Below, piece by piece: positions 8,646 to 53,100 of a DNA stretch of 64,000 bases. The notes beneath the pieces are model-generated. The model did no database searches, had not been told where the DNA came from, and was given only the letters and a program-made list of their open reading frames with translations. The stretch is from Dehalococcoides sp. JdFR-54 (GTDB taxonomy: Bacteria; Chloroflexota; Dehalococcoidia; JdFR-54), in contig MTNP01000005.1 of assembly GCA_002011475.1 (NCBI GenBank), positions 15,336 to 79,335 on the forward strand. The letters run 5' to 3'. The position numbers were made by a program, and so were the translations under genes. Positions within the stretch are counted from its first letter, which is position 1. Every line of letters starts with the position of its first letter.

Positions 8646-8708
8646 AGCGCCCGGGCTCCAGTTGTGAATGAAAGCACACATAATACTAGCATAAATTGGG
8701 GCCGCTTT

Positions 8709-10582: not shown

Positions 10583-10658
10583 TAAAATTCGCTGCGGATT
10601 TGCGGCTAAAAGCATAGTCAAATAAACCCCAGGCCCAAACAAAGGAAAGGAGCGGGCA

Positions 10659-13417: not shown

Positions 13418-13437
13418 GGACACGCCAAATTTAAAAA

Positions 13438-13467
13438 ACAGGGGTCGAAGGGCGACCCTTGTTTTTT
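13438..13467 (+). terminator. intrinsic terminator/attenuator hairpin between acsB and acsD
   Basis: AAAAAACAGGGGTCG-AAGGG-CGACCCTTGTTTTTTGG: a 10-bp stem (one G.U), 5-nt loop, and A-tract/T-tract flanks. It could work on either strand, since acsB is plus-strand and no convergent gene exists. Confidence 0.6.
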
Positions 13468-13506
13468 GGGTTGAAGGTCTTAGTTTTTCGGGAAAGGAGA
13501 CCAAGG

Positions 13507-14448
13507 ATGGCTGTGGAAGTGCCCCTGGAGAAGTGGACCGGCAAGATACGGGAGGTGGAGCTGGGGGGCAATGGCCGGAAGAGCCTGGTGGTTGGCGGCG
13601 CAGCCACCCTTCCCTTCCTCCATTTCGAGGCTGCCATCCCCCACCGGCCGGCAGTGGCCATGGAGGTCCAGGATATATACCCTGGGGGCTGGTCGGCCCA
13701 TCTGGAGGCGGCCTGGGGGGATGCCTTGAAGGACGCCGGGGCCTGGGCCAGAAAGGCGACTGAGTTCGGCGCCGACCTCATTTGCCTGCGCCTGGTCAGC
13801 GCCCACCCCGAGTCAGGCAATACCGGCGCCGCCCAGGCCAAGGCCACCGTGGACAAGGTCCTCTCCGCCACTGACCTGCCTCTGATCGTGCTCGGGCCGG
13901 AGGTGCCCGAGAAGGATAACGAGGTTTTGGTAGCCGCCTCGGAGGTGGCCAAAGGGCAAAGGGTGGCCCTGGGCCCCTGCCTGGAAAAGAACCACCGCAC
14001 CATCGCCGCCGCCTGCCTCGCCGATGGCCATGTGGCCATCGCCAAGACCCCCATCGAGATCAACCTGGCCAAACAGCTCAACATCCTCCTCTGCGATGTG
14101 GGCATGCCCGCCAACTCCATCCTCATGGACCCCACCACCGGTGCCCTGGGCTACGGCCTGGAGTATACCTACTCGGTGATGGAGAGGCTTCGCCTGGCTG
14201 CCCTCATGGGCGACGGCATGACGGCCATGCCCATGATCTGCACCGTGGGCGAGGAATCGTGGCGGCAGAAGGAGTCCAGGGCAGCCCAGGGCGTGCCCGC
14301 CAGCTGGGGCGATATCGAAAGGCGCTCCCTGGTCTGGGAGGAGCTCACCGCCCTGAGCCTGCTGCACTCCGGCGCCGATATCGTGGTGCTGAGGCACCCT
14401 GGGGTGGTGGAGAGGGTCAAGGCCGCCATAGACCAGCTCATGGCATAG
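13507..14448 (+). CDS. acsD: corrinoid iron-sulfur protein small subunit
   Basis: Start MAVEVPLEKWTGKIREVELGG with RBS GGAAAGGAG. It has the TIM-barrel CFeSP delta family features. Confidence 0.85.
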   Translation: MAVEVPLEKWTGKIREVELGGNGRKSLVVGGAATLPFLHFEAAIPHRPAVAMEVQDIYPGGWSAHLEAAWGDALKDAGAWARKATEFGADLICLRLVSAHPESGNTGAAQAKATVDKVLSATDLPLIVLGPEVPEKDNEVLVAASEVAKGQRVALGPCLEKNHRTIAAACLADGHVAIAKTPIEINLAKQLNILLCDVGMPANSILMDPTTGALGYGLEYTYSVMERLRLAALMGDGMTAMPMICTVGEESWRQKESRAAQGVPASWGDIERRSLVWEELTALSLLHSGADIVVLRHPGVVERVKAAIDQLMA

Positions 14449-14463
14449 CGAGAGGAGGCAACC

Positions 14464-15816
14464 ATGGCATTAACCGGGATCGAAATCTATAAGCTCCTGC
14501 CCAAGACCAACTGCAAGAAGTGCGGATTCCCTACCTGCCTCGCCTTCGCCATGAAGGTGGCCCAGAAAGGGATAGAGATCACCGCCTGCCCCGACCTCAC
14601 CGAGGAGGCCAGGGGCGCCCTGGAGGCAGCGGCCCGGCCCCCCATCCGCCTGGTCACCGTGGGCAGCGATGAGCACAAGTTCGAGGTGGGCAACGAGGTA
14701 GTATTGTTCCGCCACGAGAAGACCTTCTACCATCCCCCGGCCCTTATGGTGAGGGTAAAAGACAACCTGGCCGCTGAGGAGCGGGATAAGCTGGTGAGTG
14801 AGGTGTCCCGCTACAGTGTGGAGAGGGTGGGCATAGTGATGAGCGCCGATGGCTTCGCCATCGACAACGACTCCCGGGATGCGGGCAAGTTTGCCGCCTG
14901 CGTAGAATCGGTCACCTCCCAGGTGAAGTCGCCCTTGGTGCTCATGGCCACCGACCCGGCGGCTATGGAGGCGGCCCTGGCCAAGGCGGCCGGGCGCAGG
15001 CCCCTTATCTATGCCGCCACCAGGGACAACCTGGATAGGATGGTGGAGCTGGCCAAGACATATAATTGCCCCCTGGCGGTGTCGGAGCCGGCAGGCCTGA
15101 GCGAGCTGGCCGAACTCACCGAGAGGGCAGCCCAGGCAGGCGTAGAGGATCTGGTCATCGACCCCGGGGCCACTGGCTTCAGCGCCTCGTTGCAGGTGCT
15201 GACCCAGCTCCGTCGCCTGGCCATAAAGAAGATGTTCCAGCCCCTGGGCTATCCCATAATCACCTTCCCCGGTGACGGGGCCACATCGGTGGAGGAGGAG
15301 GCCATGCTGGCTGGCCAGCATATCGCCAAATATGCCGGGATCATCGTGCTCAACCACTTTTCCCCGGCCACCCTGTACCCTTTGCTCACCCTGCGCCTCA
15401 ACATCTACACCGACCCCCAGAAGCCCATTCGAGTGCAGCCGGGCATCTATCAGATCGGCGAGCCCAAGGACTCCAGCCCCCTGTGCGTCACCACCAATTT
15501 CTCCCTGACCTACTTCTCCATTGCCGGCGAGCTGGAGTCCAGCGGTTTCCCCTCCTGGCTCTTGGTCTGCGATACCGAGGGCCTTTCCGTGCTCACCGCC
15601 TGGGCCGCTGGCAAGTTCGATGCTGACAGGATCGCCAAGTCGGTGAAGGAATACAAGGCCAACGAGAAGATCAACCATAATAGCCTCATCCTCCCCGGCA
15701 AGGTGGCGGTGCTCAGGGGCGAGCTGGAGGAGGAGCTGCCCGACTGGAAGATCAGGGTGGGGCCATTGGAGGCCATGGATGTGGGCAGCTATCTGAAGAC
15801 TCAGTGGAAGCCCTGA
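14464..15816 (+). CDS. acsC: corrinoid iron-sulfur protein large subunit
   Basis: N-terminal [4Fe-4S] motif CKKCGFPTCLAFA, and 450 aa as in Moorella AcsC. Confidence 0.9.
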   Translation: MALTGIEIYKLLPKTNCKKCGFPTCLAFAMKVAQKGIEITACPDLTEEARGALEAAARPPIRLVTVGSDEHKFEVGNEVVLFRHEKTFYHPPALMVRVKDNLAAEERDKLVSEVSRYSVERVGIVMSADGFAIDNDSRDAGKFAACVESVTSQVKSPLVLMATDPAAMEAALAKAAGRRPLIYAATRDNLDRMVELAKTYNCPLAVSEPAGLSELAELTERAAQAGVEDLVIDPGATGFSASLQVLTQLRRLAIKKMFQPLGYPIITFPGDGATSVEEEAMLAGQHIAKYAGIIVLNHFSPATLYPLLTLRLNIYTDPQKPIRVQPGIYQIGEPKDSSPLCVTTNFSLTYFSIAGELESSGFPSWLLVCDTEGLSVLTAWAAGKFDADRIAKSVKEYKANEKINHNSLILPGKVAVLRGELEEELPDWKIRVGPLEAMDVGSYLKTQWKP

Positions 15817-15817
15817 T

Positions 15818-16606
15818 TTGAGCCCGAAGACGGTTACCATAGCCATCGCTGGCAAGGGGGGCACGGGCAAGACCACCATCGCCGCCCTGCTGGCCAGCAT
15901 ATTTTCCCAGAAAGGGGTGGTGCTGGCCATCGACGGCGACCCCAGCACCAATCTGCACCTGTCCCTGGGCCTGTCCCTAGAGAATACGGTGGGGGCGGTG
16001 CGAGAGGACATGCTCCGACAGGCGAGGGGGGGAGGCCCCAGCCTGGGCATGGCCAAGCTGGACTATCTGGACCTGAAGATCCACGAGTGCCTAGTGGAAT
16101 CCACGGGCATCGATCTTCTGGCCATGGGCAGGCCGGAGGGGCCGGGGTGTTATTGCGCCGCCAACAATATGCTGCGCACCTGTATCGACCGCTTGGCCAG
16201 TAACTACGATTATGTGGTCATCGACACCGAGGCGGGTATGGAGCACATCAGCCGCCAGACCACCCGGGATGTGGACATCCTGCTCCTCATCTCCGACCCC
16301 ACCCTGAGGGGCGTCATCAGCGCCGTCCGGATGAAGGAGCTCATCGGGGAGCTCCGCACCCGGGTGGGTCGGATCGCCTTGGTGATAAACCGCCAGGATG
16401 GCGAGCTGTCGCCGGAGGTCCTGGGGGTGATCCGGGACCGGGGCCTGGAGCTGGTGGGCTCCCTTCCCAACGACCCCCACATGGCCGGGCTGGAAGCCCG
16501 GGGGAGACCCCTGACCGAGCTACCCCAGGATTCGCCCCTGCGGGTGGGCGTGCTCGCCATAGCCCGCCGGCTGGGCCTGGTCGAGGCCGAAAGCAAAGTC
16601 AGCTAG
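15818..16606 (+). CDS. cooC: CooC/AcsF-type Ni-insertion ATPase
   Basis: Deviant Walker A IAIAGKGGTGKTT plus a CxC region. The TTG start lies 1 nt after the acsC stop. Confidence 0.85.
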   Translation: MSPKTVTIAIAGKGGTGKTTIAALLASIFSQKGVVLAIDGDPSTNLHLSLGLSLENTVGAVREDMLRQARGGGPSLGMAKLDYLDLKIHECLVESTGIDLLAMGRPEGPGCYCAANNMLRTCIDRLASNYDYVVIDTEAGMEHISRQTTRDVDILLLISDPTLRGVISAVRMKELIGELRTRVGRIALVINRQDGELSPEVLGVIRDRGLELVGSLPNDPHMAGLEARGRPLTELPQDSPLRVGVLAIARRLGLVEAESKVS

Positions 16607-16618
16607 AGGAGAAAGGCT

Positions 16619-17539
16619 ATGTTCCTTATTGGAGAGTCCATCCATGTCATCTCGCCCAAGGTCAGGGCAGCCATCGAGAGCCGGGACAAGGCCCTTATCC
16701 AGGAACTGGCCCAGCGCCAAGTGGAGAAAGGAGCCCATTGCCTGGACCTGAACATCGGCCCCCAGAAGAAGGCCGGCACCGAGGTCATGCCCTGGATGGT
16801 TGAGACCGTCCAGGAGGTGGTCGATGTCCCCCTCTCCCTGGATACCACCAATGTCGCCGCCATGGAGGCTGGCCTTCAGGTGTGCAAGAAACAGGCCATC
16901 ATCAATAGCACCGATGCCACCCCGGAGCGCCTCCACGCCCTGATGCCCCTGGCCGCCAAGTACAATGCCCGGATCATCGCCCTGTCCTTGGCAGCCACCG
17001 GCCTGCCCACTAGCGCCGATGCCCGCATCACGCTGGCCTCAGAGAACCTGCTGCCGGCAGCTATGGAATACGGGGTGCCCTATGAGAATATTTACCTCGA
17101 CCCCCTGGTGCTCACCGTCAACGGCAACCAGGACCAGGCCCTGGCCACGGTGGAGGCGGTGCGCCTCTTCAAGCAGATGACCGACCCCCCCTGCCTCACC
17201 ACCTGCGGCCTGTCCAACGTCTCCAATAGCTGTCCCAATGAACTGCGCTCCCTGCTCAACCGGGTGTTCCTGGTGATGCTCATGGGCGCCGGCCTGGACT
17301 CGGCCATCGCCGATGCCCTGGATGACGAGCTTCTGGAAACCATCCGCATTGTGGAGAGCCGAGATACCTCCACCCCCAAGGGCCAGCTCTATATAGACCT
17401 CTTCGATACCTACCAAGCGGGCGGGGAGTTCGACCCCAGCGGCGTAGATATGAGCAACCCCGAGCTCAGCGACATCGTCAAGACCATAAAGGTCTTCGAG
17501 AACAAAACCCTGTACGCCCACGGCTACCTGAGGCTATAG
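16619..17539 (+). CDS. acsE: methyltetrahydrofolate:corrinoid/iron-sulfur protein methyltransferase
   Basis: MFLIGESIHV...GAHCLDLNIGP follows the Moorella MeTr pattern MLIIGERIN...GARALDLNVGP. Confidence 0.85.
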   Translation: MFLIGESIHVISPKVRAAIESRDKALIQELAQRQVEKGAHCLDLNIGPQKKAGTEVMPWMVETVQEVVDVPLSLDTTNVAAMEAGLQVCKKQAIINSTDATPERLHALMPLAAKYNARIIALSLAATGLPTSADARITLASENLLPAAMEYGVPYENIYLDPLVLTVNGNQDQALATVEAVRLFKQMTDPPCLTTCGLSNVSNSCPNELRSLLNRVFLVMLMGAGLDSAIADALDDELLETIRIVESRDTSTPKGQLYIDLFDTYQAGGEFDPSGVDMSNPELSDIVKTIKVFENKTLYAHGYLRL

Positions 17540-25968: not shown

Positions 25969-26031
25969 AAAGCCACTCCCCTCCGAGACATCAATTGACC
26001 AGGCCTCATGGTGGCGGAGGGGGTGGGATTC

Positions 26032-26122
26032 GAACCCACGGCCCCGAGAATCGAGGCAGCGGTTTTCAAGACCGCCTCCTTAAACCGCTCGGACACCCCT
26101 CCTATGCAGGATAGTATACCTG
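26032..26122 (-). tRNA. tRNA-Ser (anticodon UGA), 91 nt with long variable arm
   Basis: The minus strand reads GGAGGGGTGTCCGAGCGGTTTAAGGAGGCGGTCTTGAAAACCGC...GTGGGTTCGAATCCCACCCCCTCCGCCA. It has a 7-bp acceptor stem, anticodon loop CUUGAAA, GTTCGAATC T-loop and encoded CCA. It resembles E. coli tRNA-Ser(UGA). Confidence 0.85.
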
Positions 26123-26200: not shown

Positions 26201-27208
26201 TCAGCAGATCCTGGGCAATAACTCGCCCACCAACATATCCAGGAGGCGGCTGGCCCCCAAGAGGGTTTTCATCACCACCCGCCCTGGATGCTGGGCAGTG
26301 ACCTCCCCGATGATGGCGGCCTGGGCACCATATCTATTGCCCTTCATTGCCGCCAGCACCCTTTCCGCATCCTCGGGGGCCACTACGGCCACCAGCTTGC
26401 CCTCGTTGGCCACATAGAGGGGGTCGAATCCCAGAAGCTCGCAGGCCGCCTGCACCGCCTCCCGCACCGGCACCCTGGCCTCCTCGATGCGGATGCCCAC
26501 CCCCGACTGTTGGGCCAGCTCGTTGAGGCTGCTCACCAGCCCGCCTCGGGTGGGGTCGCGCAGGCAATGGATATTGGGGGAGGCCCCGAGCATCTCGGCC
26601 ACCAGGTGGTTAAGGGGGGCGCAGTCGCTGTCCACCGGCACCGAGAACTCTAGGCCCTGGCGCCGGCTCATAACGGCGACACCGTGGTCGCCCACCGGGC
26701 CGCTGAGGATGACCTTGTCCCCGGGGCGAGCGTTGGCGCCCGATATATCAACCCCATGGGGTACCAGTCCTATGCCCGAGGTATTAATGAATATGCCATC
26801 GGCGCCGCCCCGGTTCACCACCTTGGTATCGCCGGCCACCACCTTGACCCCGGCCTCGGCTGCCGCCTCCCGGATGGAGGCCACTATCTGTTTCAGGCCC
26901 CCCAGGGCGAAGCCCTCCTCGATGACAAAGGACAGGGTGAGGTATAAAGGCCGGGCGCCGCTCATGGCCAGGTCGTTGACGGTGCCGCACACGGCCAGCT
27001 TGCCGATATCGCCGCCGGGAAAGAAGATGGGGCTCACCACATAGCTATCAGTGGTGAAGGCGAGGCGGCCGCTGAGGTCGAAGACGGCGCAGTCGTCCAG
27101 CCTATCCAGCAGGGGATTGCTGAGGAGGGGGACCAGGGTCTGCTGCACCAGGTCGTGGCTGAGCTTGCCGCCGCTGCCGTGGGCCAGCAGTATGGTATCC
27201 TCATTCAT
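26201..27208 (-). CDS. hypE: hydrogenase maturation protein HypE (AIR synthase-like)
   Basis: MNEDTILLAHGSGGKLSHDLV, ending in the C-terminal ...PRIC cysteine. It has PurM-like domains. Confidence 0.85.
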   Translation of the reverse strand: MNEDTILLAHGSGGKLSHDLVQQTLVPLLSNPLLDRLDDCAVFDLSGRLAFTTDSYVVSPIFFPGGDIGKLAVCGTVNDLAMSGARPLYLTLSFVIEEGFALGGLKQIVASIREAAAEAGVKVVAGDTKVVNRGGADGIFINTSGIGLVPHGVDISGANARPGDKVILSGPVGDHGVAVMSRRQGLEFSVPVDSDCAPLNHLVAEMLGASPNIHCLRDPTRGGLVSSLNELAQQSGVGIRIEEARVPVREAVQAACELLGFDPLYVANEGKLVAVVAPEDAERVLAAMKGNRYGAQAAIIGEVTAQHPGRVVMKTLLGASRLLDMLVGELLPRIC

Positions 27209-28292
27209 GGTCAGCTCCATATTGGTAGTAGGCGGCACAGCTCCCCTCCGAGGAGACCATGCACGGGCCTACCGGATGCTCCGGGGTGCACACCCTGCGG
27301 AACAGCTTGCAGTCCAGGGGGGTTTTGACGGCCCGGAGGATGTCTCCGCAGAGGCAGCCAGCCGGCTCCAGGGTGGGGCCGGGGTCTATTTGGAATTGGG
27401 CCTCGGCGTCGAAGCTGCGGTACTTCTCCCTCAGCTTCAGCCCGCTCTGGGGCACGGTGCCGATGCCTCGCCAGGTGGCTTGGCTCTCCTCAAAGACAGT
27501 GGCCATGAGCCTCAGAGCCTGGGGATTCCCCTCGGGCTTGACGCCCCGTCTATAGGCTATCTCCACTTTGGGCTCCCCCCTCTCCACTTGGGCCACCAGC
27601 ATCTCCACGCTGAGCAGGATATCCAGAGGCTCAAACCCCGAGACCACGCAGCCAATGCCGTAGCCAGTGGGGATAAATCCCCAGGGGCGGGAGCCGATGA
27701 CGGCGCTGACATGGCCGGGGCAGATGAGGCCATCCAGCCTCACCTCTCCGGAGTCGAGCAGGGCCTTGATCACCGGGGGGCACAGCTTGTGCAGGGGGAG
27801 GACGAAGTAGTTGTGGATGGCCTCCGCCTCCGCCTGGAGCACCGAGGCGGCCACAGTGGGGGCGGTGGTCTCGAAGCCGATGCCCAAGAACACCACCCGC
27901 TTATCGGGGTTGTCCCGGGCCATGGCCAGGGCATCCCGGGTGGAGTAGACCACCCTTATATCGCCGCCCTCAGCCTTGGCCTGCTGAAGGCTGGAGCGGC
28001 TGCCCGGGACTTTAAGCATATCGCCGAAGGTGGCTAGGATCACGCCCGGCTCCTTGGCCAGGGCGATGGCCTTGTCCAGCTCGGCGTTGGCGGTGACGCA
28101 CACGGGGCACCCCGGCCCGGAGAGCATCTCCACGGTGGGGGGGAGGAGCTGGCGAATACCATGCTTGAAAATGGTAACAGTATGCCCCCCGCAGAACTCC
28201 ATGATCCGGGCGGGCCTGGTGGAGAGCTTATGTATCCGATCCACCAAGCGCTTGCCCAGTTCCGGGTCACGATATTCGTCTACATACCTCAT
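27201..28292 (-). CDS. hypD: hydrogenase maturation protein HypD
   Basis: Motifs CGGH, GPGCPVC and C-terminal CxxH/CPVC-type cysteines, and 363 aa. Confidence 0.9.
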   Translation of the reverse strand: MRYVDEYRDPELGKRLVDRIHKLSTRPARIMEFCGGHTVTIFKHGIRQLLPPTVEMLSGPGCPVCVTANAELDKAIALAKEPGVILATFGDMLKVPGSRSSLQQAKAEGGDIRVVYSTRDALAMARDNPDKRVVFLGIGFETTAPTVAASVLQAEAEAIHNYFVLPLHKLCPPVIKALLDSGEVRLDGLICPGHVSAVIGSRPWGFIPTGYGIGCVVSGFEPLDILLSVEMLVAQVERGEPKVEIAYRRGVKPEGNPQALRLMATVFEESQATWRGIGTVPQSGLKLREKYRSFDAEAQFQIDPGPTLEPAGCLCGDILRAVKTPLDCKLFRRVCTPEHPVGPCMVSSEGSCAAYYQYGADHE

Positions 28293-28326
28293 TTTTTGAC
28301 CTCTTTCGGCCTGGGCCCTTCGTCTT

Positions 28327-28548
28327 TCAAGCCGACTCCTCGGCCAGCTCGCGCAAGAGCTTCAGGGTCTCCTCAGCCTCCCCGGCGTCGATGACATTTA
28401 TGGAATAGCCGGTGTGGAGGAGCACGTAATCGCCCACCTTCACTTCCGGGGTGAGGGCGATGCTGATGCGGCGGCCCACCCCACCCACCTCAACCTCCGC
28501 CTCCTGTCCTGTGACGGATTTGACCAGGGCTGGTATGGCCAGACACAT
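28327..28548 (-). CDS. hypC: hydrogenase maturation protein HypC
   Basis: MCLAIPA N-terminus with the essential Cys2, and 73 aa. Confidence 0.8.
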   Translation of the reverse strand: MCLAIPALVKSVTGQEAEVEVGGVGRRISIALTPEVKVGDYVLLHTGYSINVIDAGEAEETLKLLRELAEESA

Positions 28549-28550
28549 AG

Positions 28551-30854
28551 CTAATTCCTCTTCTTATTATCTAGAATGGCATTGGCGATCACCGCCTGAC
28601 CCAGGGAGATGCCACCGTCGTTGGTAGGCACGAGATTGTGGCTCAGGACTTGGAAGCCCGCCCCCTCCAACGCAACATGGGTCAACCTGAATAGCAGCCG
28701 ATTTTGGAAGACCCCGCCGCTCAGGGCCACCACTTTGAGGCCCGTCTTCTCAGAGATAAGCTGGCACATGCGCAGCACCATTCGGGTCACCGTATTGTGG
28801 AACCTGGCGGCGATGATCGGGTTGGGCGTGCCCCTCTTCATATCGGAGATGATGGCCACAAACAGCTCCCCAAGCTTGATGACGTATTTGCCTTCTTCCT
28901 CGGCAATGGAAAAGGGGTATTCCTCGGCCACGCCCGGGGCCGAAAGCATCTCCAGCTCGATGGCAGCCTGGGCCTCATAGTCGATCTCGCCCCTGAGGCC
29001 GATGAGCGCCGAGACCCCATCGAAGAGCCGCCCCAGGCTGGAGGTAAGGGGCGAGTTGAATTTCTTTTCCACCTGGCCCCGGACAATCCTTATTTCCTCA
29101 GCGGAAATCTCTTTGAGGAAAGCCAGCCCTGGGTCGAAAAGCCCCAGCTCCAACAAATAGCTCAAGGCCATACGATAGGGGCGCTTGATGGCAGCGGCGC
29201 CGCCGGGGAGGGGCATGTTTTCCAGGTGGCCCCAACGCTGAAATCGCCCATAGTCCGCCACCAAGAACTCGCCGCCCCAGATGAGGCCATCGGTGCCATA
29301 ACCCACCCCATCTAACGACACCCCGATAACGGGCTCCGAGACCCCGTTTTCCACCATACAGCTCACGATGTGGGCGTGGTGGTGCTGCACCGGGACGAAT
29401 GCCAGGTTGTTGGGCTGGGCCTGTAGTTCCTTGGTGTACTTGGTGGAGAGGTATTCGGGGTGCATATCGTAGGCCACAGCCTCGGGCTGGATACGGAACA
29501 GCTTCTTATATAGCTCGATAGTGGTCTCGAAGTGCTCCAGGGTCTCCAGGTTTTCCAGGTCGCCGATGTGCTGGCTGAGGAAGGCATGGCCCTCCCTGGT
29601 AAGGCAAAAGGTGTTCTTGAGCTCGGCGCCGCAGGCCAGGATCTGCCTTACGGGGAAGGGAAGGTGGATGGGGTAGGGGGCATAGCCCCGGGCCCGGCGC
29701 AGCACCCGAGTCCTGCCCAGTTCTACCATGGTCACGCTGTCGTCGTAGCGGGCGTAGATGTCCCGGTCGTGCATCAGGAAATAATCCGCCAGATTGCCGA
29801 GGCGGCGCAGGGCCTCGTCGTTGTCCTTGGCGATGGGCTCCTCGCTCAAATTTCCGCTGGTCATCACCAGGGGCAGACCTGTCTCCCGGAGGAGGAGGTG
29901 GTGCAAAGGGGTATAGGGCAGCATCACCCCCAGGTATCTCAGATTGGGGGCCACCTCCGGGGTCACTGGGGAGCCCGCCTTCCAGGGCAGCAACACGATG
30001 GGGCTCTCCGGGGAGAGGAGCAGCCTCTCCTCCTCGGCGGATACCTGACAATGCTTCCTGGCCTCCTCCAAGCTGGCCACCATGATGGCCAGGGGCTTGA
30101 AGGGGCGCCTCTTGCGCTGCCTCAGAAGTCTCACCGCTTCCTGGCTGGTAGCATCACAGGCGAGGAGGAATCCCCCCAGGCCCTTGACGGCCACGATTTT
30201 GCCCCCTTGGAGCAATTGGCTGGCCGTGGTGAGGACATCTTCGGCGGGTATGGGGTTGCCTCTATTATCCGTTAGCTCCAACCGGGGCCCGCACCGGGGA
30301 CAGGCGTTGGGCTGGGCATGGAAGCGGCGATCCAGGGGGTCGTCGTATTCCCGCTGACAGTGGGGACACATTCGGAAGCGCCGCATGGTGGTCAGGGGCC
30401 GGTCATAGGGGATGTCCTCGATGATGGTGAAGCGGGGGCCGCAATTGGTGCAATTGGTAAAGGGATAGCGATAGCGCCGGTTCTGGGGGTCGAAGACCTC
30501 CTTTTGGCACGGCTGACAGGTAGCGATATCGGGGGAGACGAGCTGATATTTGTCGGCCTCAGCGATGCTCTCCCGGATATGGAAGTCGGCGTAGCCCACG
30601 GGTGGCAGCCGGGTGGTGGCGATGCTCTCGATGCGGGCCAGGGGCGGGGCCTGGCTTTCCAGTTCAGCCAGGAAGCGCTCCAGGGCCTGGCCCTCTCCCT
30701 CCACCTCGATCTTGACATCCCCTGAAGTGTTGCACACCCAGCCCTTGAGGCCATGCTTGGCAGCCAGCTGATATACGAAGGGCCGGAAGCCCACCCCTTG
30801 AACTACGCCCCGGACACTGATGCCGAGGAGCTCCACGGTTTTGGTCTTGGCCAT
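28551..30854 (-). CDS. hypF: carbamoyltransferase HypF
   Basis: N-terminal acylphosphatase domain (VRGVVQGVGFRPFV), two Zn-finger CxxC pairs, then YrdC-like and Kae1-like domains. 767 aa. Confidence 0.9.
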   Translation of the reverse strand: MAKTKTVELLGISVRGVVQGVGFRPFVYQLAAKHGLKGWVCNTSGDVKIEVEGEGQALERFLAELESQAPPLARIESIATTRLPPVGYADFHIRESIAEADKYQLVSPDIATCQPCQKEVFDPQNRRYRYPFTNCTNCGPRFTIIEDIPYDRPLTTMRRFRMCPHCQREYDDPLDRRFHAQPNACPRCGPRLELTDNRGNPIPAEDVLTTASQLLQGGKIVAVKGLGGFLLACDATSQEAVRLLRQRKRRPFKPLAIMVASLEEARKHCQVSAEEERLLLSPESPIVLLPWKAGSPVTPEVAPNLRYLGVMLPYTPLHHLLLRETGLPLVMTSGNLSEEPIAKDNDEALRRLGNLADYFLMHDRDIYARYDDSVTMVELGRTRVLRRARGYAPYPIHLPFPVRQILACGAELKNTFCLTREGHAFLSQHIGDLENLETLEHFETTIELYKKLFRIQPEAVAYDMHPEYLSTKYTKELQAQPNNLAFVPVQHHHAHIVSCMVENGVSEPVIGVSLDGVGYGTDGLIWGGEFLVADYGRFQRWGHLENMPLPGGAAAIKRPYRMALSYLLELGLFDPGLAFLKEISAEEIRIVRGQVEKKFNSPLTSSLGRLFDGVSALIGLRGEIDYEAQAAIELEMLSAPGVAEEYPFSIAEEEGKYVIKLGELFVAIISDMKRGTPNPIIAARFHNTVTRMVLRMCQLISEKTGLKVVALSGGVFQNRLLFRLTHVALEGAGFQVLSHNLVPTNDGGISLGQAVIANAILDNKKRN

Positions 30855-30867
30855 AGCTGTGGGCGGT

Positions 30868-31209
30868 CTATTCTACCTCGATGCTCTCCAAATAGCACTC
30901 TCCGCCGCAGAGGAGCTCGCCACGCATGCTGTGGCATTGGGGACAGACCCAGGTGGGGTCCTGGGCCGAGGAGGTAGCACCGCAGTCGCGACAACGCATC
31001 TGGGTGCCGATGTGGCGGAAGGTGATGTCGGCCTCGGCGGCCAGGCTATCCTTACGGAGCATATCGAAGTAGAAGCGTATAGAGTCCTCGGTGTAGCCGG
31101 AGCCATCACCGAGAGCGATGTTCAGCCTGAGGACCTTGGAGGCGTTGGCGGCCCGGGCTTGCTCCAGGGCGGTCTTGAGCAGGCTTTCCGTTATGTGTAA
31201 CTCATGCAC
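30868..31209 (-). CDS. hypA: hydrogenase Ni-incorporation protein HypA
   Basis: MHELHITESLLK N-terminus (MHE Ni site) and C-terminal CxxC...CxxC Zn site. Confidence 0.85.
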   Translation of the reverse strand: MHELHITESLLKTALEQARAANASKVLRLNIALGDGSGYTEDSIRFYFDMLRKDSLAAEADITFRHIGTQMRCRDCGATSSAQDPTWVCPQCHSMRGELLCGGECYLESIEVE

Positions 31210-31288
31210 CCGATTAGCCTCCCGTCTTTCGGCAGGACCTGATTTTGTGTTGATTATAGACCATCCCCGCGCTTACTTCAAGAAAAGG

Positions 31289-31304
31289 TGTGACACATGT
31301 CACA
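31289..31304. promoter_or_regulatory. CRP/FNR-family consensus site TGTGA-N6-TCACA upstream of hypA
   Basis: tgtgaCACATGtcaca is an exact match to the CRP-type half-sites. Its centre is ~88 bp upstream of the hypA ATG. Confidence 0.45.
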
Positions 31305-31342
31305 TTCGGCCGCTGGCCGGATAAAAAATGGGGCGAGAATAG

Positions 31343-31394
31343 TTGTTTTTCTTTCACAAAATGGTTATAATTCCCGTTTGAACGATTTATAACC
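31343..31394 (+). promoter_or_regulatory. folD promoter (-35 TTGTTT, 17 bp, -10 TATAAT) overlapped by 8-N16-8 inverted repeat GGTTATAA-N16-TTATAACC
   Basis: The perfect inverted repeat covers the -10 hexamer and the predicted transcription start. The 16-bp spacing of half-sites matches NikR-type operator geometry. Confidence 0.45.
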
Positions 31395-31441
31395 TTGAAA
31401 CCGCGGGTAAGGCATCGCACCGGGGAGGTCAAAGTAGCGCC

Positions 31442-32332
31442 ATGGCAGCAAAGATTATCTCGGGGACGGAGGTGGCAGCGGAGATTCGGGGAGAGCTGAA
31501 GCAGAAGGTGGCTGAGCTGAAGGAGAAGGGGATAACCCCCGGGCTAGGGGTCATCCTGGTGGGGGAGGATCCAGCTTCCGTCTCCTACGTTACCGGCAAG
31601 GCCAAGGGATGTGAGGAGATAGGGATATTTGAGGAGACCTTCAGGCTCCCCGCCGAGGCTACGGAAGAGGAAGTCCTGGCCATGGTGGACAGGCTGAATA
31701 AGGACCCCAGGTTCCACGGCATCCTGGTGCAGCTTCCCCTGCCCAAGCATATCGACGAGAAGAAGGTGTTGGTGGCCATCTCGCCGGAGAAGGATGTGGA
31801 CTGCTTCCACCCGGTGAATGTGGGCAAGTTGCTCATAGGCGAGGCCGATTTCCTGCCCTGCACCCCCCACGGCGTGCAGCAGCTCTTGGTCAGGAGCGGC
31901 AACAGCCCCGAGGGCAAGCACGTGGTCATCTGCGGCCGGAGCAACATCGTGGGCAAGCCCCTGATGGCCATGCTGGTCCAGAAGGCCAAGGGGGCCAACG
32001 CCACCATCACCGTGTGCCATACCGGGACCAGGGACCTGGCCTCTGTTACCCGGCAAGCCGACATCCTGGTAGCAGCGGCGGGTTCCCCACAGATGATCAA
32101 GGCAGATATGGTTAAGGAGGGAGCCGTGGTCATCGATGTCGGGGTCAATCGCATCCCCGATGAGACCAAGAAGAGCGGCTTCCGCCTGGTGGGGGATGTG
32201 GACTTCGAGGCTGTGGCCGAAAAGGCTTCGGCCATTACCCCGGTGCCTGGGGGCGTGGGGCCGATGACGGTGACCATGCTCCTGGTGAACACGGTGCGAG
32301 CTGCCGAGAGGCAGGCCGCAGCCAGGACATAG
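31442..32332 (+). CDS. folD: bifunctional 5,10-methylene-THF dehydrogenase / methenyl-THF cyclohydrolase
   Basis: [37 protein letters not shown], and 296 aa. Confidence 0.9.
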
Positions 32333-32386: not shown

Positions 32387-34150
32387 ATGCCTTATGATGC
32401 GCTAAAAATGAAGGATTGGGAGATCGCAGAAGCAGCCGAAGCTAATATGCCAACCCCCGATGAATGGCGAGAAAGACTTAACTTGCAAAAGGATGAGATT
32501 ATCCCCTATGGGAGACTGTGCAGACTTGATTTCATGAAGATCATCGAGCGCCTCAAGGACAAGCCGGACGGCAAGTACATTGAGGTGACGGCCATTACCC
32601 CCACGCCGCTGGGAGAAGGAAAGACCACAACCACCCTGGGCATCCTGGAGGGCCTGGGCAAGCGGGGCAAGAATGTGGGCGGCTGCATCCGCCAGCCCTC
32701 AGGTGGTCCCACCATGAATATCAAGGGAACCGCCGCCGGTGGTGGCAATGCCCTGCTCATTCCCATGACCGAATTCTCCATGGGACTTACCGGCGATATA
32801 AATGATATAGGCAATGCCCACAACCTGGCCATGGTGGCGCTTACCGCCAGAATGCAGCACGAGCGCAACTATAGCGATGAGGAACTGGCCAGTCGCAGCC
32901 GGATGCGCCGCCTGGACGTTGACCCTACCAGGGTGGAGATGTGCTGGGTTATGGATTTTTGCGCCCAGAGCCTGCGCAATATCATCATCGGCCTTGGCGG
33001 CCCCATGGATGGCTTCCTGATGCAGTCCAAGTTCGCCATCACCGTGAGCTCCGAGCTCATGGCCATGCTGTCCATTGCCAGGGACCTGGCGGACCTGCGG
33101 GAAAGGATGGATAACATCACCGTGGCGTTCGATAAAAGGGGTAAACCCATCACCACGGGCGATCTGGAAGTGGGTGGCGCCATGACGGCCTGGATGCGCA
33201 ACACCATCAATCCCACCCTGTGTTGCACTGTAGAGTATCAGCCTGTGATGGTGCATGCCGGCCCCTTTGCCAACATCGCGGTGGGCCAGTCCTCCATCAT
33301 TGCCGACCGCATTGGCCTGAAGATGTTTGACTACCATGTCACCGAAAGCGGCTTCGGGGCAGATATCGGTTTCGAGAAGTTCTGGAACGTCAAGTGCCGC
33401 TTGAGTGGTCTCAAACCACACGTTTCGGTGCTAACCACCACCATCCGGGCCCTGAAGATGCATGGCGGCGGACCCAGGGTGGTGGCTGGCCTTCCCCTAT
33501 CCGAAGAGTACACTAAGGAGAACCTGGAGCTCTTGGAAAAGGGCCTGGCCAACATGCTGCACCACATAAACATCATCAGAACCTCTGGCATTAACCCGGT
33601 GGTGTGCATCAACTCCTTCCACACCGACACCAAGGATGAGATCGCCATGGTCCGAAGGGCGGCCGAGGCGGCCGGTGCCCGCTGTGCTGTGGCTACCCAC
33701 TGGGCCCACGGGGGCGATGGCGCCCTGGAGCTGGCCGATGCGGTTATAGAAGCCTGCGAAGAGAAGAATGAATTCAAATTCCTGTATCCCATGGAAATGA
33801 AATTGCGGGAGCGGGTGGACAGGATCGCCAAAGTAGTTTATGGCGCCGATGGCGTGACCTGGACCCCTGAGGCCGAGGCCAAGGCCAAAATGCTCGAGGC
33901 CGATCCCAAATACGATGAGTACTCCACAATGATGGTGAAAACCCACCTGAGCCTCACCCACGATCCGGCCATCAAGGGTGTTCCCAAGGGGTGGACACTG
34001 CCCATACGCGACGTGCTGATCTATTCCGGGGCGAAGTTCCTCTGCCCCTGTGCCGGGACCATTAGCCTGATGCCGGGAACCAGTTCCGACCCGGCCTTCA
34101 GAAGGGTAGACGTCGATACCAGCACCGGTAAAGTGCGGGGGCTTTTCTAA
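32387..34150 (+). CDS. fhs: formate--tetrahydrofolate ligase
   Basis: [18 protein letters not shown]-loop motif and 587 aa. Confidence 0.9.
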
Positions 34151-45290: not shown

Positions 45291-47957
45291 TCAAAAATGG
45301 GCCAGTAACGCCTCAATCAGGGGCGTGGCCTGCTCCTCGCTGAGGCAGTACTTCATCTCGGTAAACCTGCTTCGGAACCGGGAAATGGTCTCGGGGCAAT
45401 CCCTACCGGCCAGCACTATATCCGCCATGTAGCCGGCCAGCTCTTGGAAGTCCGGCTCTGTCATGCCGAATCTGGTCATCTCCTGGACACCCATCCTCAC
45501 CCCGCTGCTGGCGGTGAAGGTCTCATCGCCCGGTATGGCTTGGTAGTTCACAACTATGTTGTTTGCCTCCAGCCGGTGGGCCACCTCGATTCCCTTGGCA
45601 TAGTCAAATCTCAGGATCACCTGGTGGGTCTCCGTGAAGTCGATCCCGGGGTCTCCCTCTACCCGAAATCCGCACTCCTTCAGTGCCAGGGCGAAGGCCT
45701 TGGCATTGGCGATCACTTGCCTCTGGTACTCGTCTTTGAAGGCATTCATCTCGTAGGTTGCCATCAGAAGCCCCAGCAGGGTGCCCAGGTGATGATTGCT
45801 CACGCTCCCCGGGAATATTCTCCTCACTATGGCCTCCCACAGTTCAAAGGCGTCTGTGCCTTTGCTCATGTTGCTGGCGATTATCCCCCTCTGCGTGCCG
45901 AAGAAGGTTTTATGCGTTGACGCCGTTATAATATCGGCACCTTCCTCAAGGGGCTGCTGGAAATAGGGGCCGAGGAGACCAAAGACATGGGCGGTATCAT
46001 ACATGAGCGTGGGCCTGGGTCTCATACCGGCAATCATGAGGGCTATCTCCGACACGGGCTCCCGATGCAACACCGCGCTCTTGCCCAAGATGATCAGCTC
46101 AGGCTTGTGCTCCGCTATGAGTTGGGCTGTCCTGTCCAGGTCTATCTGCCACGGGTTGTCCAGCGACCAGGGGAAGTTGACGACCGCCGGCCTTCCGGTC
46201 AGGGGACTGATGGCGACATAGTCCCTCAGCGCGCCCATGGGCTGTGAGCTGAGGTGGCCTCCCATCCCAATGAAATGGTTCATAACGCTCCGGAATCTCC
46301 GCGGCTCAGCCGTCCTGTCCACCCTGTTCAGGTATTCCAATAGGCCGCTGAACACCGCGGTGTTGGCCATCTGGCCGCTGATGGGTCGGGTTTCTACCTG
46401 AGAGCAGCCGAGGAAATCCCTCATCTGTTCGGCCAACTCCTCCTCCACCTCGGCTATGAACCTTGTCCCCTGATAATAGTACGTCTCCACCTCCCCCAGG
46501 GCCTTGACTATCCGGTGCTCCGCATACCTCCCTGCTGGATCGGAGATGCTGAGCAATCTCACCAGGGGCGAGGGGGTCTGCTCAGAGGGTATCAAGTTGA
46601 TGGTGGCCCTTTGCCGCCACCGGGCATTGTCCAGGGTTTTCCTCACCAGGCTGTGAGCCAGCCCTTCCAACGTCTTTCTTGCCCCAGATGCGACCGCCTT
46701 ATCCTGATCTTCAACCAGGATTGGCCTAGCGTAGGGGGCTGCCTCGCTGCCCAGGTGCCGGCTGACCACCATGGCCGGGAGTTGCCTATCCCTTACGGAG
46801 ATCAGTAGCTCCTGCCCCTCCTTCAGGTCGGCATCGAGGTAGGCAAGGCATATCGCCCTTTTGCCTGATTGGGCGCCTGGCTTCGAAGCGACGCCCTTGC
46901 CCTCCACCCTCCAGAATGGGACCACGGTGCCGCTGGTCACGCGGCCCACCAATGCCCCGTTTAGGTAAACCTCACACCCTGCTCTGGCTACCCCATCACC
47001 CAAGACCGCTACAGGCATTATCATCCTGGGGACCAGCTGGTCCGCCTTGGGCTTGTCGAGCAGACCTTGCAGCCTTAACTTCACTTCCTCGAACTGGTTG
47101 GCCAGGGCCTCCCGGCCTATATAGTAACCCTTGTTCCTGGCGAAGCTGATGCAGTTTCCGGCTAGCCGCCCGGAGAACAGGGGTATCTCTTTCCCCTCCC
47201 CATCGTTTCCCAGCTCATGCCCATAGAGGGGGAGGTTGGCCTCAAGCCTCAAGGTGTCCCTGGCCCCCAGCCCGACAGCTACCACCCCCTCCCTGGCCCC
47301 AATTTCCAGCAAGGTGTTCCAGAGGGGGACAGCTATCTCCGCAGGGGGGAACAGCTCGAAGCCGATAGGTTCGCCGGTATAGCCTGTTCTAGCTATCGGC
47401 ACCTTTGTGCCGAATATCTCGACGGTGGTGATGGTGTTCCTGGTGGGACCGGGCAATCTCAGCCCATCACCCCCCAACACGGTCTCCAGCACCGCCTTCG
47501 ACCTGGGCCCCTGGAGCGCCAGCATGGCGATGGCAGCGGTACGGTCTTCGAGCACCACGGCGCGGAACCTTTCCTTGCGCTCTTGCAGCCACTGCCAGTC
47601 CTTTTCCGTGTTCGCAGCGTTGACCACCAGCATATACTGCTGATGGTTTATCCTGTAGAGATAGGCATCGTCAACTGCTCCCCCACTCTCGTTTGAGATG
47701 ATCGTGTACTGGGCTTGCCCTGGCTCCAATGCCTCAACGTTATTCGTTAAGACATATTGCAGGAAGGGCAGGGCATCTTCGCCACTTATTAGCAGTCTGC
47801 CCATATGAGAGAGGTCGAACAAGCCGCCGAATTTCCTGGTTGCCAGATGCTCTTGGAATATGCCCGAAGCATAGTTCAGAGGCATTTCCCAGCCGCAGAA
47901 TTCAATCATATTGGCCGCTAGTTTTATATGCTCTTGATATAAAGGTGTGCGCTTCAT
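45291..47957 (-). CDS. fusion protein: glycine-cleavage T protein (aminomethyltransferase) N-terminal ~430 aa joined to a full-length serine hydroxymethyltransferase C-terminal ~450 aa
   Basis: The N-terminal part reads MKRTPLYQEHIKLAANMIEFCGWEMPLNYASGIFQEHLATRKFGGLFDLSHMGRL (GcvT). The C-terminal part has NLIPSEQTPSP, PISGQMANTAVFSGLL, HKPELIILGKSA, MYDTAHVFGLL, ITASTHKTFFGTQRGII (PLP-Lys) and FPGSVSNHHLG, all SHMT signatures. It is one uninterrupted 895-codon frame. Confidence 0.8.
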   Translation of the reverse strand: MKRTPLYQEHIKLAANMIEFCGWEMPLNYASGIFQEHLATRKFGGLFDLSHMGRLLISGEDALPFLQYVLTNNVEALEPGQAQYTIISNESGGAVDDAYLYRINHQQYMLVVNAANTEKDWQWLQERKERFRAVVLEDRTAAIAMLALQGPRSKAVLETVLGGDGLRLPGPTRNTITTVEIFGTKVPIARTGYTGEPIGFELFPPAEIAVPLWNTLLEIGAREGVVAVGLGARDTLRLEANLPLYGHELGNDGEGKEIPLFSGRLAGNCISFARNKGYYIGREALANQFEEVKLRLQGLLDKPKADQLVPRMIMPVAVLGDGVARAGCEVYLNGALVGRVTSGTVVPFWRVEGKGVASKPGAQSGKRAICLAYLDADLKEGQELLISVRDRQLPAMVVSRHLGSEAAPYARPILVEDQDKAVASGARKTLEGLAHSLVRKTLDNARWRQRATINLIPSEQTPSPLVRLLSISDPAGRYAEHRIVKALGEVETYYYQGTRFIAEVEEELAEQMRDFLGCSQVETRPISGQMANTAVFSGLLEYLNRVDRTAEPRRFRSVMNHFIGMGGHLSSQPMGALRDYVAISPLTGRPAVVNFPWSLDNPWQIDLDRTAQLIAEHKPELIILGKSAVLHREPVSEIALMIAGMRPRPTLMYDTAHVFGLLGPYFQQPLEEGADIITASTHKTFFGTQRGIIASNMSKGTDAFELWEAIVRRIFPGSVSNHHLGTLLGLLMATYEMNAFKDEYQRQVIANAKAFALALKECGFRVEGDPGIDFTETHQVILRFDYAKGIEVAHRLEANNIVVNYQAIPGDETFTASSGVRMGVQEMTRFGMTEPDFQELAGYMADIVLAGRDCPETISRFRSRFTEMKYCLSEEQATPLIEALLAHF

Positions 47958-47962
47958 CGTTA

Positions 47963-49435
47963 TCAAGTCCTTCTGCATCGATCATTCCCTTTCGGGGTCC
48001 AGCGCAGGTTCAGCTTTCTGGCAGCCGCCACCTCATCGAGACGCCTCATCGGGGTATTATGGGGCGCCGAGTGCAAGAGCTCGGGGTTCTCTTCTGCCTC
48101 TTTGGCTATCATCTTCATGGCAGCTATAAATTCATCGAGCGTCTCCTTGCTCTCCGTTTCGGTGGGCTCTATCATCAGGGCCTGGCTGACCACCAGCGGA
48201 AAGTACATGGTGGGCGGATGAAAACCGTAGTCGAGCAATCGCTTGGCAATATCCAGGGCGGTTACCCCTTTGTCCTTCTGCCGGCTCGCCGAGATCACGA
48301 ATTCATGCAGGCAGGTTCGATCGTGGGGCAGGTGATAGTCATCCTTTAGCTTCTTTTGCAGATAATTGGCGTTGATCACCGCGTTGTCGCTGACCTCTCT
48401 CAGCCCCCCGGCCCCCAGGGTGCGTATGTAGGCATAGGCCTTCACCAATACGCCGAAGTTACCGTAAAAGGCGCTCACTTTGCCTATAGACTTGGCGGGC
48501 CGGGCGAATTCGTAGGCCGCTTGCCTTCCTTCTCTATAAATCACTACAGGGGTTGGCAGGAAGTCCTTCAGGAATTCCTTGACACAAACCGGGCCTGCTC
48601 CAGGCCCTCCCCCTCCATGGGGGGTGCTGAAGGTCTTATGCAGGTTCATTTGCACGAGATCAAATCCCAACTCCCCCAACTTGGTCCGGCCGATAACGGC
48701 ATTCAGATTGGCGCCGTCGCAGTAGAGGAGGGCACCGCAGTCGTGGACCAGTCTGCTTATCTCGAGCGTGTTACGGTCGAAGAGGCCCAGGGTGTTAGGT
48801 ATAGTGAGCATCAAGGCCGCCACCCTATCAGAGAGCTTTGGGCGTAGGTCATCCAGGTCCACATCGCCCTCCTGGGTGGACCTGACGGTCATCTGCTCAA
48901 AGCCGCACATGGTCACGGTGGCCGCGTTGGTACCGTGGGCTGTATCAGGGACCAGCATTATGTTCCTTTGGCCCTGCCCTCGGTGGCGGTGATAGGCCCT
49001 GACCATCATGGCTCCGGTCAGTTCCCCCTGAGCCCCAGCCATGGGAGCCAGACTGGTCGCATCCAGGCCCACAATCTCCGCCAGATATCCTTGAAGCTCG
49101 AACATGAGGCGAAGCGCCCCCTGAACCGTGTCCACCGGCTGGAGGGGGTGCAATTGGCTGAACCCGGGAAGCTGGGCGATAGCCTCGTGCCACTTGGGGT
49201 TATATTTCATGGTGCAACTTCCCAAGGGATAGAACCCGGTATCCACGCTGAAATTTAGGCGGCTCAGGGCGGTGAAGTACCTCACCAGCTCTATCTCGCT
49301 TACCTCGGGGAGGACGAGTTCCTCCCTGAGGAGGGAGGCATCCGGCAGCTCAGAGGGCGGCACGTCCAAGACGGGCAGGGTGCACCCCCTTGCCCCAGCC
49401 TTGCTTCTATCCAATAGCAGATCCCTCTTGCTCAT
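47963..49435 (-). CDS. gcvPB: glycine dehydrogenase (decarboxylating) subunit 2
   Basis: PLGSCTMKYNPK and the PLP motif NLHKTFSTPHGGGGPGAGP. Confidence 0.9.
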   Translation of the reverse strand: MSKRDLLLDRSKAGARGCTLPVLDVPPSELPDASLLREELVLPEVSEIELVRYFTALSRLNFSVDTGFYPLGSCTMKYNPKWHEAIAQLPGFSQLHPLQPVDTVQGALRLMFELQGYLAEIVGLDATSLAPMAGAQGELTGAMMVRAYHRHRGQGQRNIMLVPDTAHGTNAATVTMCGFEQMTVRSTQEGDVDLDDLRPKLSDRVAALMLTIPNTLGLFDRNTLEISRLVHDCGALLYCDGANLNAVIGRTKLGELGFDLVQMNLHKTFSTPHGGGGPGAGPVCVKEFLKDFLPTPVVIYREGRQAAYEFARPAKSIGKVSAFYGNFGVLVKAYAYIRTLGAGGLREVSDNAVINANYLQKKLKDDYHLPHDRTCLHEFVISASRQKDKGVTALDIAKRLLDYGFHPPTMYFPLVVSQALMIEPTETESKETLDEFIAAMKMIAKEAEENPELLHSAPHNTPMRRLDEVAAARKLNLRWTPKGNDRCRRT

Positions 49436-50754: not shown

Positions 50755-50764
50755 GCCATCTCCC

Positions 50765-51151
50765 TCAGCCTTCTTGCCGGCTGATAAACTCCTGATACTC
50801 CTGGAAGCTCATCAGGTTATTGAGCTCGGAAACATCATCGGCCGTCAACTTCACCAGCCAGCTCTCCCCAAAGGGGTCTTTCCTGACAAGGTCCGGTTCT
50901 TCCTTGAGGGCCTCGTTTACCGCCACAACCTCGCCGGAGAGGGGTGAGAAGATAACGGCGACAGCCTTCACCGATTCAAGCTCACCCAGTTTCTCAAACT
51001 GCTTTACTTTGCTACCCACGCTGACAAGCTCCAAGAAGACTATGTCCCCCAAACGGGCCGCAGCGAAGTCAGTGATTCCTACGGTGGCTATCCCATCCTT
51101 CTCAAATACCCATTCGTGACTCTCGGCGTATCTCAGCTCCCTTGGGTCCAA
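50765..51151 (-). CDS. gcvH: glycine cleavage system H protein
   Basis: ATVGITDFAAARLGDIVFLEL and the lipoyl-Lys motif ELESVKA. Confidence 0.9.
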   Translation of the reverse strand: MDPRELRYAESHEWVFEKDGIATVGITDFAAARLGDIVFLELVSVGSKVKQFEKLGELESVKAVAVIFSPLSGEVVAVNEALKEEPDLVRKDPFGESWLVKLTADDVSELNNLMSFQEYQEFISRQEG

Positions 51152-51197
51152 ATCATCACCTCCGCATTCGATTTTTTGCTCCGTTTCCTGCGACCAT

Positions 51198-52764: not shown

Positions 52765-52807
52765 GGCTCATTCATTACTTGCTGAAACTGCCTTTTCAGC
52801 AGTGTGG

Positions 52808-53008
52808 AATAATAAAGGGCACGCAGCCATGCGTGCCCCCTGTCCCTTTGCCTGAGAGATTCGCCCTACAACGGGCCTTCCCCTTCGGCCCCCCACATTA
52901 CGGGGTGTCTCCAGGCGGTCATCACAACTGCAGTCCTTTTGCCTGAGAGTTTCGGCCCAAACCGCGCCTTGCCCCTTCGGCTCCCCAATCATGGGGCCTC
53001 TCCTGCAG
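52808..53008 (-). ncRNA. glycine riboswitch (tandem aptamers) with intrinsic-terminator expression platform, leader of lipB-lipA-gcvH-PA-PB-(gcvT::glyA)
   Basis: Aptamer 1 (minus strand): CUGCAGGAGAGGCCCC..GGGGAGCCGAAGGGGCAAGG...ACUCUCAGGCAAAAGGACUGCAG. Aptamer 2: CCUGGAGACACCCC..GGGGGGCCGAAGGGGAAGG...AUCUCUCAGGCAAAGGGACAGG. Both carry the conserved GGAGA, CCGAAGGGG and CUCAGGCAAA(A)GGAC cores. Then comes GGGCACGCA-UGGC-UGCGUGCCC followed by UUUAUUAUU. Confidence 0.85.
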
Positions 53009-53100
53009 TTGCATTTGCAACATAGCATATGGGACAGGGTTTGTCAACCGCCCCGATTGACCGCCGGGGGTGATGGAGCCATCAGTGCCGCTGGGGGCCC

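Follow-up and report, generated by a model that had tools for sequence, protein, structure and literature searches.

A candidate CRP/FNR-type operator in the divergent hypA-folD promoter region of a Dehalococcoidia genome fragment

The hypA-folD gap and its predicted promoters

The window (the whole 64-kb stretch of DNA that was analysed) contains two divergently oriented gene sets separated by a 232-bp gap at positions 31210 to 31441 (Table 1). On the minus strand, hypA heads an operon with the order hypA-hypF-hypC-hypD-hypE, in which the downstream genes were recognized by their Pfam matches. On the plus strand are folD and fhs, which are methyl-branch genes of the Wood-Ljungdahl pathway. 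The Pfam families of HypA and FolD corroborate the gene assignments made in the original prediction from the sequence of this region. The hyp cluster (26201 to 31209) is without hypB, whose GTPase product usually partners HypA in inserting nickel, and 3' of the operon on the same strand are tRNA-Ser(UGA) (26012 to 26102) and sucCD.

Table 1. Genes, predicted promoter elements and symmetric motifs in and around the hypA-folD gap (window positions)
Feature	Positions	Strand	Details
hypA	30868-31209	-	113 aa, GTG start, MHELHITE..., Pfam PF01155, ORF listing
hypA ribosome-binding site GGGAGG	31218-31223	-	Read from sequence
hypA -10 (predicted) TATAAT, context TCTATAAT	31253-31258	-	Promoter scan; identical in L087
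hypA -35 (predicted) TTGAAG, 17-bp spacer	31276-31281	-	Promoter scan; CTTGA core kept in L087, L125 and L090
Palindrome TGTGACACATGTCACA	31289-31304	none	Perfect TGTGA-N6-TCACA, candidate operator
A-tract block GGATAAAAAAT	31319-31329	+	About -50 to -60 from predicted folD start; 31319-31327 identical in L087
folD -35 (predicted) TTGTTT, 17-bp spacer	31343-31348	+	Read from sequence; block GTTGTTTTTC identical in L087
Inverted repeat GGTTATAA-N16-TTATAACC	31363-31394	none	Arms 31363-31370 and 31387-31394
folD -10 (predicted) TATAAT, context ATGGTTATAAT	31366-31371	+	Read from sequence; kept in L087
folD ribosome-binding site GGGGAGG	31422-31428	+	Read from sequence
folD	31442-32332	+	PF00763/PF02882
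fhs, formate-tetrahydrofolate ligase	32387-34150	+	PF01268; 3' of folD

The window also encodes an acsB/cdhD/acsC/cooC/acsE cluster and a glycine-cleavage operon that a glycine riboswitch precedes. Together with folD-fhs and the hyp genes, this content identifies the neighborhood as one of anaerobic C1 and H2 metabolism. The acetyl-CoA synthase cluster (11195 to 17539; acsB/CdhC, cdhD, acsC, cooC and acsE) has no adjoining gene for the CODH catalytic subunit (cooS/acsA), an arrangement that resembles the incomplete Wood-Ljungdahl layout described for Dehalococcoides. The promoter of this cluster (10560 to 10588) appears to be TTGACG-17-TAAAAT, extended by a TG. The riboswitch comprises a single aptamer on the minus strand (52921 to 53015; 68 bits) and is followed by lplA, a radical-SAM gene, gcvH, gcvP1, gcvP2 and a GcvT-SHMT fusion (45291 to 53015, minus strand); the fusion protein is 888 aa in length (PF01571 plus PF00464).

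The GC content of the gap region falls locally to 39 to 49%, compared with approximately 60%. As a check on population variation, a Logan contig (L002) was compared with the window and found to be 100% identical. The closest relatives of FolD and HypF were all encoded by Dehalococcoidia or Chloroflexota MAGs, and only one relative was close enough to align (L087/L088, from JGI 3300009150 and an ENA assembly; referred to here as L087). Compared with the window, L087 is 87% identical in HypA, 88% in hypA DNA and 80% at third codon positions, and approximately 67 to 70% identical in the intergenic DNA.

Judged from its sequence, the gap is an ordinary back-to-back promoter region with two predicted sigma-70-type promoters. 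The promoter scan placed the hypA promoter on the minus strand as TTGAAG-17-TATAAT (31281 to 31253; 10/12 matches), and CTTGAA-N17/18-(T/G)CTATAAT also is found 5' of hypA in L087, L125 and L090. This predicted promoter is well supported by its consensus match and by its recurrence in relatives. The gene order in L125 and L090 appears to be hypA-hypB-hypF, because approximately 700 nt of space lies between hypA and hypF in these loci.

The predicted folD promoter, TTGTTT-17-TATAAT on the plus strand, is approximately 70 nt ahead of folD; its -35 hexamer fell below the promoter-scan threshold (3/6). In relatives, ATGGTATAAT or TGNTATAAT precedes folD or thyX-folD (L087, L003, L004, L008, L171, L172 and L176). 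The window resembles these extended -10 promoters (TGnTATAAT) in that ATGGTTATAAT occupies the spot equivalent to that of ATGGTATAAT before folD or thyX, but it contains one additional T, and its TG is therefore one position out of register. The predicted transcription start sites are approximately 31247 for hypA and 31378 for folD, and the A-tract block upstream of the folD promoter may be UP-element-like.

Several Dehalococcoidia folD genes combine the TGNTATAAT promoter with a downstream leader of 170 to 250 nt (L003, 5830 to 6000; L004, 5500 to 5675; L008; L176, 1335 to 1547). The leaders of L003 and L004 have short conserved blocks in common, e.g., GGAT(T)CCCTC(G/A)CC. An Rfam search of the Dehalococcoidia folD leaders gave no family match, and the long leader may represent an undescribed leader element. 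The folD leader of the window itself is only approximately 63 nt in length.

hypA was not found upstream of folD in 80 representative-genome loci or in the best metagenomic FolD relatives (80 to 82% identity). The genes upstream of folD in these relatives were thyX, a tRNA or unrelated genes, and such loci are informative on promoter type only. At L087 (positions 1 to 170, reverse strand), at least 150 nt separate the conserved folD-type promoter from the end of the contig. This stretch, which includes a hairpin, AGACTC-N18-GAGTCT, contains no start of folD or thyX, and adjacency of hypA and folD may therefore be peculiar to the organism from which the window derives.

The palindrome upstream of hypA

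The original prediction reported two symmetric motifs in the gap, and both were found at 31289 to 31304 and 31363 to 31394 when the sequence was read. The first was described as a perfect CRP/FNR/CooA-family consensus approximately 88 bp upstream of hypA. This was borne out: TGTGA-N6-TCACA is matched at every specified position, the whole forming a perfect 7-N2-7 palindrome (TGTGACA-CA-TGTCACA), and the center of symmetry (31296.5) lies 87.5 bp from the GTG start of hypA. The palindrome is situated between the two predicted promoters, with 7 bp between it and the hypA -35 hexamer, and its center would be at approximately -49.5 relative to the predicted hypA start and approximately -82 relative to the predicted folD start. 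Unlike a typical repressor site, it overlaps neither predicted core promoter.

A perfect TGTGA-N6-TCACA is present once in the 64-kb window, compared with an expectation of 0.04; if only the 3.6 kb that is intergenic is counted, the expectation is approximately 0.003 by our own estimate. When one mismatch was allowed, three sites were seen against 0.95 expected. As 11 of 100 shuffled sequences also reached three, this count gives no sign of a regulon in the window. When two mismatches were allowed, 4 of the 14 matches were intergenic (intergenic DNA making up 5.6% of the window), and at least one of these four, that at 10578, is the -10 region of a promoter. Perfect repeats with 7-bp arms and a spacer of up to 6 arose in 10% of Markov-simulated 232-nt regions of the same composition, and as generic inverted repeats both the palindrome and the 8-N16-8 repeat discussed below are unremarkable. 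The statistical weight of the palindrome therefore lies in its match to a pre-existing consensus, a support that the 8-N16-8 repeat does not have. The promoter scan also marked the palindrome as a minus-strand hairpin resembling a terminator. This was rejected because no gene ends upstream on that strand and because the stem is only 6 to 7 bp with a loop of 2 to 4 nt.

The original prediction proposed that other copies of each motif be sought in the genome. Such copies, as well as regulator genes, were sought in approximately 83 kb, consisting of the window and a further 19 kb of the contig to which it belongs, DUEO01000012.1 (GCA_011170395.1). The perfect palindrome was unique in the window, and within the 83 kb no second good site of either motif was found, the only other palindrome sites being weak near-matches. 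No CRP/FNR, Rex or NikR gene was encoded in the same 83 kb. The near-matches at 8663 and 10578 are both intergenic. That at 10578 was rejected as an operator, as it corresponds to TGTGATAAAAT, the extended -10 element of the YflT/acsB promoter. The sequence TTGTGAATGAAAGCACAC at 8662 to 8679, which has one mismatch as a CRP-type site and three as a Rex-type site, falls in a 63-bp gap flanked by an HpcH-like lyase gene and a carboxyltransferase gene; on the minus strand, it lies just 3' of a -10-like hexamer (TATTAT), a position typical of a repressor.

Comparison with L087 revealed only three islands with 15/16 identities in the intergenic alignment, namely the hypA -10, the palindrome and the folD -35. 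The longest unbroken identical run (31292 to 31306, 15 nt) falls in the palindrome. The L087 counterpart, TGCGACACATGTCACA, differs by a single change in one half-site (TGTGA to TGCGA), and the palindrome keeps, within 1 bp, its distance from both the hypA -35 and the folD -10. This is the pattern expected for a protein-binding site, though it comes from one comparison only. At a background identity of approximately 70%, 15/16 matches would occur in roughly 5% of 16-nt windows (our own estimate) and so are not rare.

The search was widened to 80 hypF loci (48 to 73% identity, 466 kb), whose operon layouts differ, being hypA-hypB-hypF or lacking hypA. Sites with up to one mismatch were not enriched among them (8, compared with approximately 14 expected). 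The sole perfect TGTGA-N6-TCACA in these 466 kb was at L145, in the gap directly 5' of the hyp operon. L145 is an unrelated soil-metagenome locus with a HypF that is 51% identical; at 2340 to 2395 it carries a perfect TGTGATACGCCTCACA and an adjoining TGTGAGATGTCAC directly 5' of hypF, with a divergent HEAT-repeat gene on the other side. In the hypA upstream regions of more distant Dehalococcoidia, the promoter was kept and no palindrome was present. The folD loci of other organisms (826 kb) contained no perfect site, and a HypA scan of JGI metagenome contigs gave no match.

TGTGA-N6-TCACA is the consensus of Escherichia coli CRP and is common to other proteins of the CRP/FNR family. HcpR1, a member of this family, is reported to bind exactly this sequence (PMC5701242). 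Our tentative reading, to which we assign a probability of approximately 0.45, is that the palindrome is the operator of a homodimeric regulator recognizing TGTGA/TCACA, most probably one belonging to the CRP/FNR superfamily, that would modulate the hyp genes. A homodimer would occupy the two half-sites 6 bp apart. From this site, which ends 7 bp short of the hypA -35, it would influence how the hyp operon, and possibly folD-fhs as well, is transcribed. That a protein binds at the palindrome, the family to which it would belong, the direction of regulation and the signal are all features that we infer; what was observed directly is the motif, its occurrence only once in the window, its placement with respect to conserved promoter elements and the fact that it is conserved in one relative. 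The CRP-type input into hydrogenase maturation that was originally proposed thus retains a basis in the perfect consensus, the location between the promoters and the rank of the palindrome among the three best-conserved islands. The accompanying choice of signal does not, since the effector (cAMP, O2/redox, NO or CO) is not inferable from the DNA site and any choice is speculation.

We consider it somewhat unlikely that the palindrome has no function, i.e., that it is a chance match in AT-richer intergenic DNA whose conservation in L087 reflects recent common ancestry. Such a match would be in keeping with the 10% frequency of 7-bp-arm palindromes in regions of this kind, with the single relative available, in which one half-site is already substituted, and with the lack of further sites or regulator genes in the approximately 83 kb and of the site in more distant hyp loci. 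However, the exact consensus was specified beforehand and is expected very rarely (0.04 per window and, by the estimate given above, 0.003 in its intergenic DNA), and the palindrome equals the promoter hexamers in conservation, in contrast to the diverged spacer DNA that flanks it.

The presence of the ACS cluster, folD-fhs and the hyp genes in one window makes a shared redox or energy input plausible. It is unlikely, in our estimation, that the palindrome serves as one shared operator through which a CRP/FNR- or Rex-type sensor would coregulate [NiFe]-hydrogenase maturation and folD-fhs in both directions. The host, a non-dehalogenating member of the Dehalococcoidia, has an ACS cluster with no adjoining CODH catalytic-subunit gene, and one possibility in that case is a CO- or redox-responsive switch that would connect H2 metabolism with C1 flux.

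If the palindrome were instead a Rex operator, an NADH/NAD+-sensing repressor would place hydrogenase maturation, and perhaps folD-fhs, under the control of the redox state. The 18-bp Rex consensus, TTGTGAANNNNTTCACAA, contains the TGTGA-N6-TCACA core that also is present here (PMC6391272; PMC2883068), and among the genes of known Rex regulons are those for [NiFe] and [FeFe] hydrogenases and one for hydrogenase maturation (PMC6391272). Wood-Ljungdahl pathway genes are present in this organism, which is an anaerobe, and the carboxyltransferase gene is preceded by a 63-bp gap containing the Rex-like TTGTGAATGAAAGCACAC, with its three mismatches. Nevertheless, we regard this as quite unlikely. 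Only 14 of the 18 positions fit, with mismatches at consensus positions 1, 7, 12 and 18 (GTGTGAC....GTCACAT here, compared with TTGTGAA....TTCACAA in the consensus), no -35 or -10 hexamer of either predicted promoter is overlapped, and no rex gene is present in the 83 kb of contig. CRP/FNR is ranked above Rex because the four off-consensus bases are retained in L087 and because there is no overlap with a core promoter. We know of no PerR/Fur box, ModE site, Helicobacter pylori NikR site or CooA site that fits the motifs better than the CRP/FNR or Rex consensus does.

The inverted repeat over the folD -10 element

The second motif, GGTTATAA-N16-TTATAACC, extends to an 11-N10-11 repeat with one mismatch, and the 8-mer GGTTATAA occurs in the 64 kb only at its two arm positions. 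In agreement with the original description, the repeat overlaps both the TATAAT -10 and the predicted folD start. The proximal arm contains the hexamer in part, the start at approximately 31378 lies between the arms, and the distal arm would correspond to approximately +9 to +16 of the predicted transcript. In the Markov simulations, 7% of the 232-nt regions contained a perfect repeat with 8-bp arms and a spacer of up to 20.

The symmetry is most likely incidental, being composed of a predicted -10 element and an unconserved AT-rich stretch at the start of the transcript. We base this assessment on the identity of one arm with the -10, the divergence of the other, the self-complementarity of TTATAA, the poor match to NikR half-sites and the absence of an RNA signal. 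The additional T in ATGGTTATAAT, compared with ATGGTATAAT in relatives, incidentally creates the GGTTATAA arm. The distal arm, TTATAACC in the window, is replaced by CGTAAACC in L087, and no inverted repeat was detectable at the equivalent L087 promoter. Furthermore, TTATAA reads the same on both strands. Two AT-rich hexamers of this kind will appear inverted in any case, and only the outer GG/CC pair adds true symmetry.

The original prediction saw in the spacing of this repeat the geometry of a NikR operator, through which a nickel signal would reach a folate C1 gene as well as hypA. The E. coli NikR operator is GTATGA-N16-TCATAC (PMC7055735), and the half-sites of the repeat match it at only 4/6 positions. 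The repeat lies on the folD promoter, approximately 110 bp from that of hypA, and folD and fhs have no nickel link. Taken with the -10 hexamer in one arm, the diverged distal arm and the 7% chance expectation, these observations leave the NikR reading unsupported. More broadly, the repeat might be a genuine repressor operator, NikR-like or with other widely spaced half-sites, that would cover -16 to +16 and shut off folD-fhs. Its perfection at 8+8 positions (10/11 when extended), the restriction of the 8-mer to this site in the window, its placement over a -10 and start site, which is classic for a repressor, and a spacing equal to that of the E. coli NikR operator (PMC7055735) would all suit such a role. 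We nonetheless judge it decidedly improbable, with NikR proper taking a small share of it, as the clade-wide ATGGTATAAT -10 element accounts for the proximal arm, no other copy exists in the 83 kb of contig, and the loss of the distal arm in L087, the self-complementary core, the chance expectation and the target genes count against it as described above.

It is hardly credible that the repeat acts as an RNA hairpin, e.g., a folD leader or attenuator: the arms are able to pair, but shuffled sequence folds as well as 31355 to 31450 does (z = 0.44), no Rfam match was obtained even at E = 10, the predicted start lies between the arms with no U-tract following, and the repeat is unconserved in L087. 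An Rfam scan of the whole window and of the gap (E up to 10) returned nothing relevant to the gap motifs; the sole match in the gap-motif scan, a twister-sister match inside hypA (E-value, 0.34), was taken as chance.

Significance and comparison with known systems

Overall, the gap is best explained, on present sequence comparisons, as carrying one plausible operator of a known class, the second motif being promoter sequence plus chance. To our knowledge, gene regulation in uncultured Dehalococcoidia that bear the Wood-Ljungdahl pathway is essentially unstudied. Should the palindrome prove to be a genuine operator, it would rank among the first concrete means of approaching the regulation of hydrogenase maturation and C1 metabolism in these organisms, and it would provide a seed motif for whole-genome regulon reconstruction. 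The motif class itself is textbook, and the value of the finding lies in annotation rather than in surprise.

The NikR-like motif fails the comparison with relatives. It is similar to the E. coli NikR operator in having half-sites 16 bp apart, in overlapping a promoter and in the adjacent nickel-insertion gene. It is dissimilar in its half-sites (TTATAA/GGTTATAA, 4/6), in its location on the folD promoter rather than on a nickel-transport or hyp promoter, in its lack of conservation in L087 and in having a proximal arm that is a -10 hexamer. With the Rex operator TTGTGAANNNNTTCACAA, the palindrome has the same 10-bp core in common, and hydrogenase and maturation genes are common in Rex regulons (PMC6391272), but the palindrome differs at 4 of the 14 specified positions (outer T/A and inner A/T) and does not overlap a core promoter.

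The classical activating positions of E. coli CRP are -41.5 and -61.5; positions of -72.5 and -82.5 also are compatible with activation by CRP/FNR proteins, and repression involves overlap of the promoter. The palindrome, which is present as a single copy in this fragment, is centered at approximately -49.5 and -82 from the predicted starts and not at -41.5 or -61.5. Otherwise, it has the half-sites, spacing and dyad symmetry of the operators of E. coli CRP, Desulfovibrio HcpR1 and Gram-positive Fnr, and like these CRP/FNR operators it lies in the promoter region of genes for anaerobic energy metabolism.
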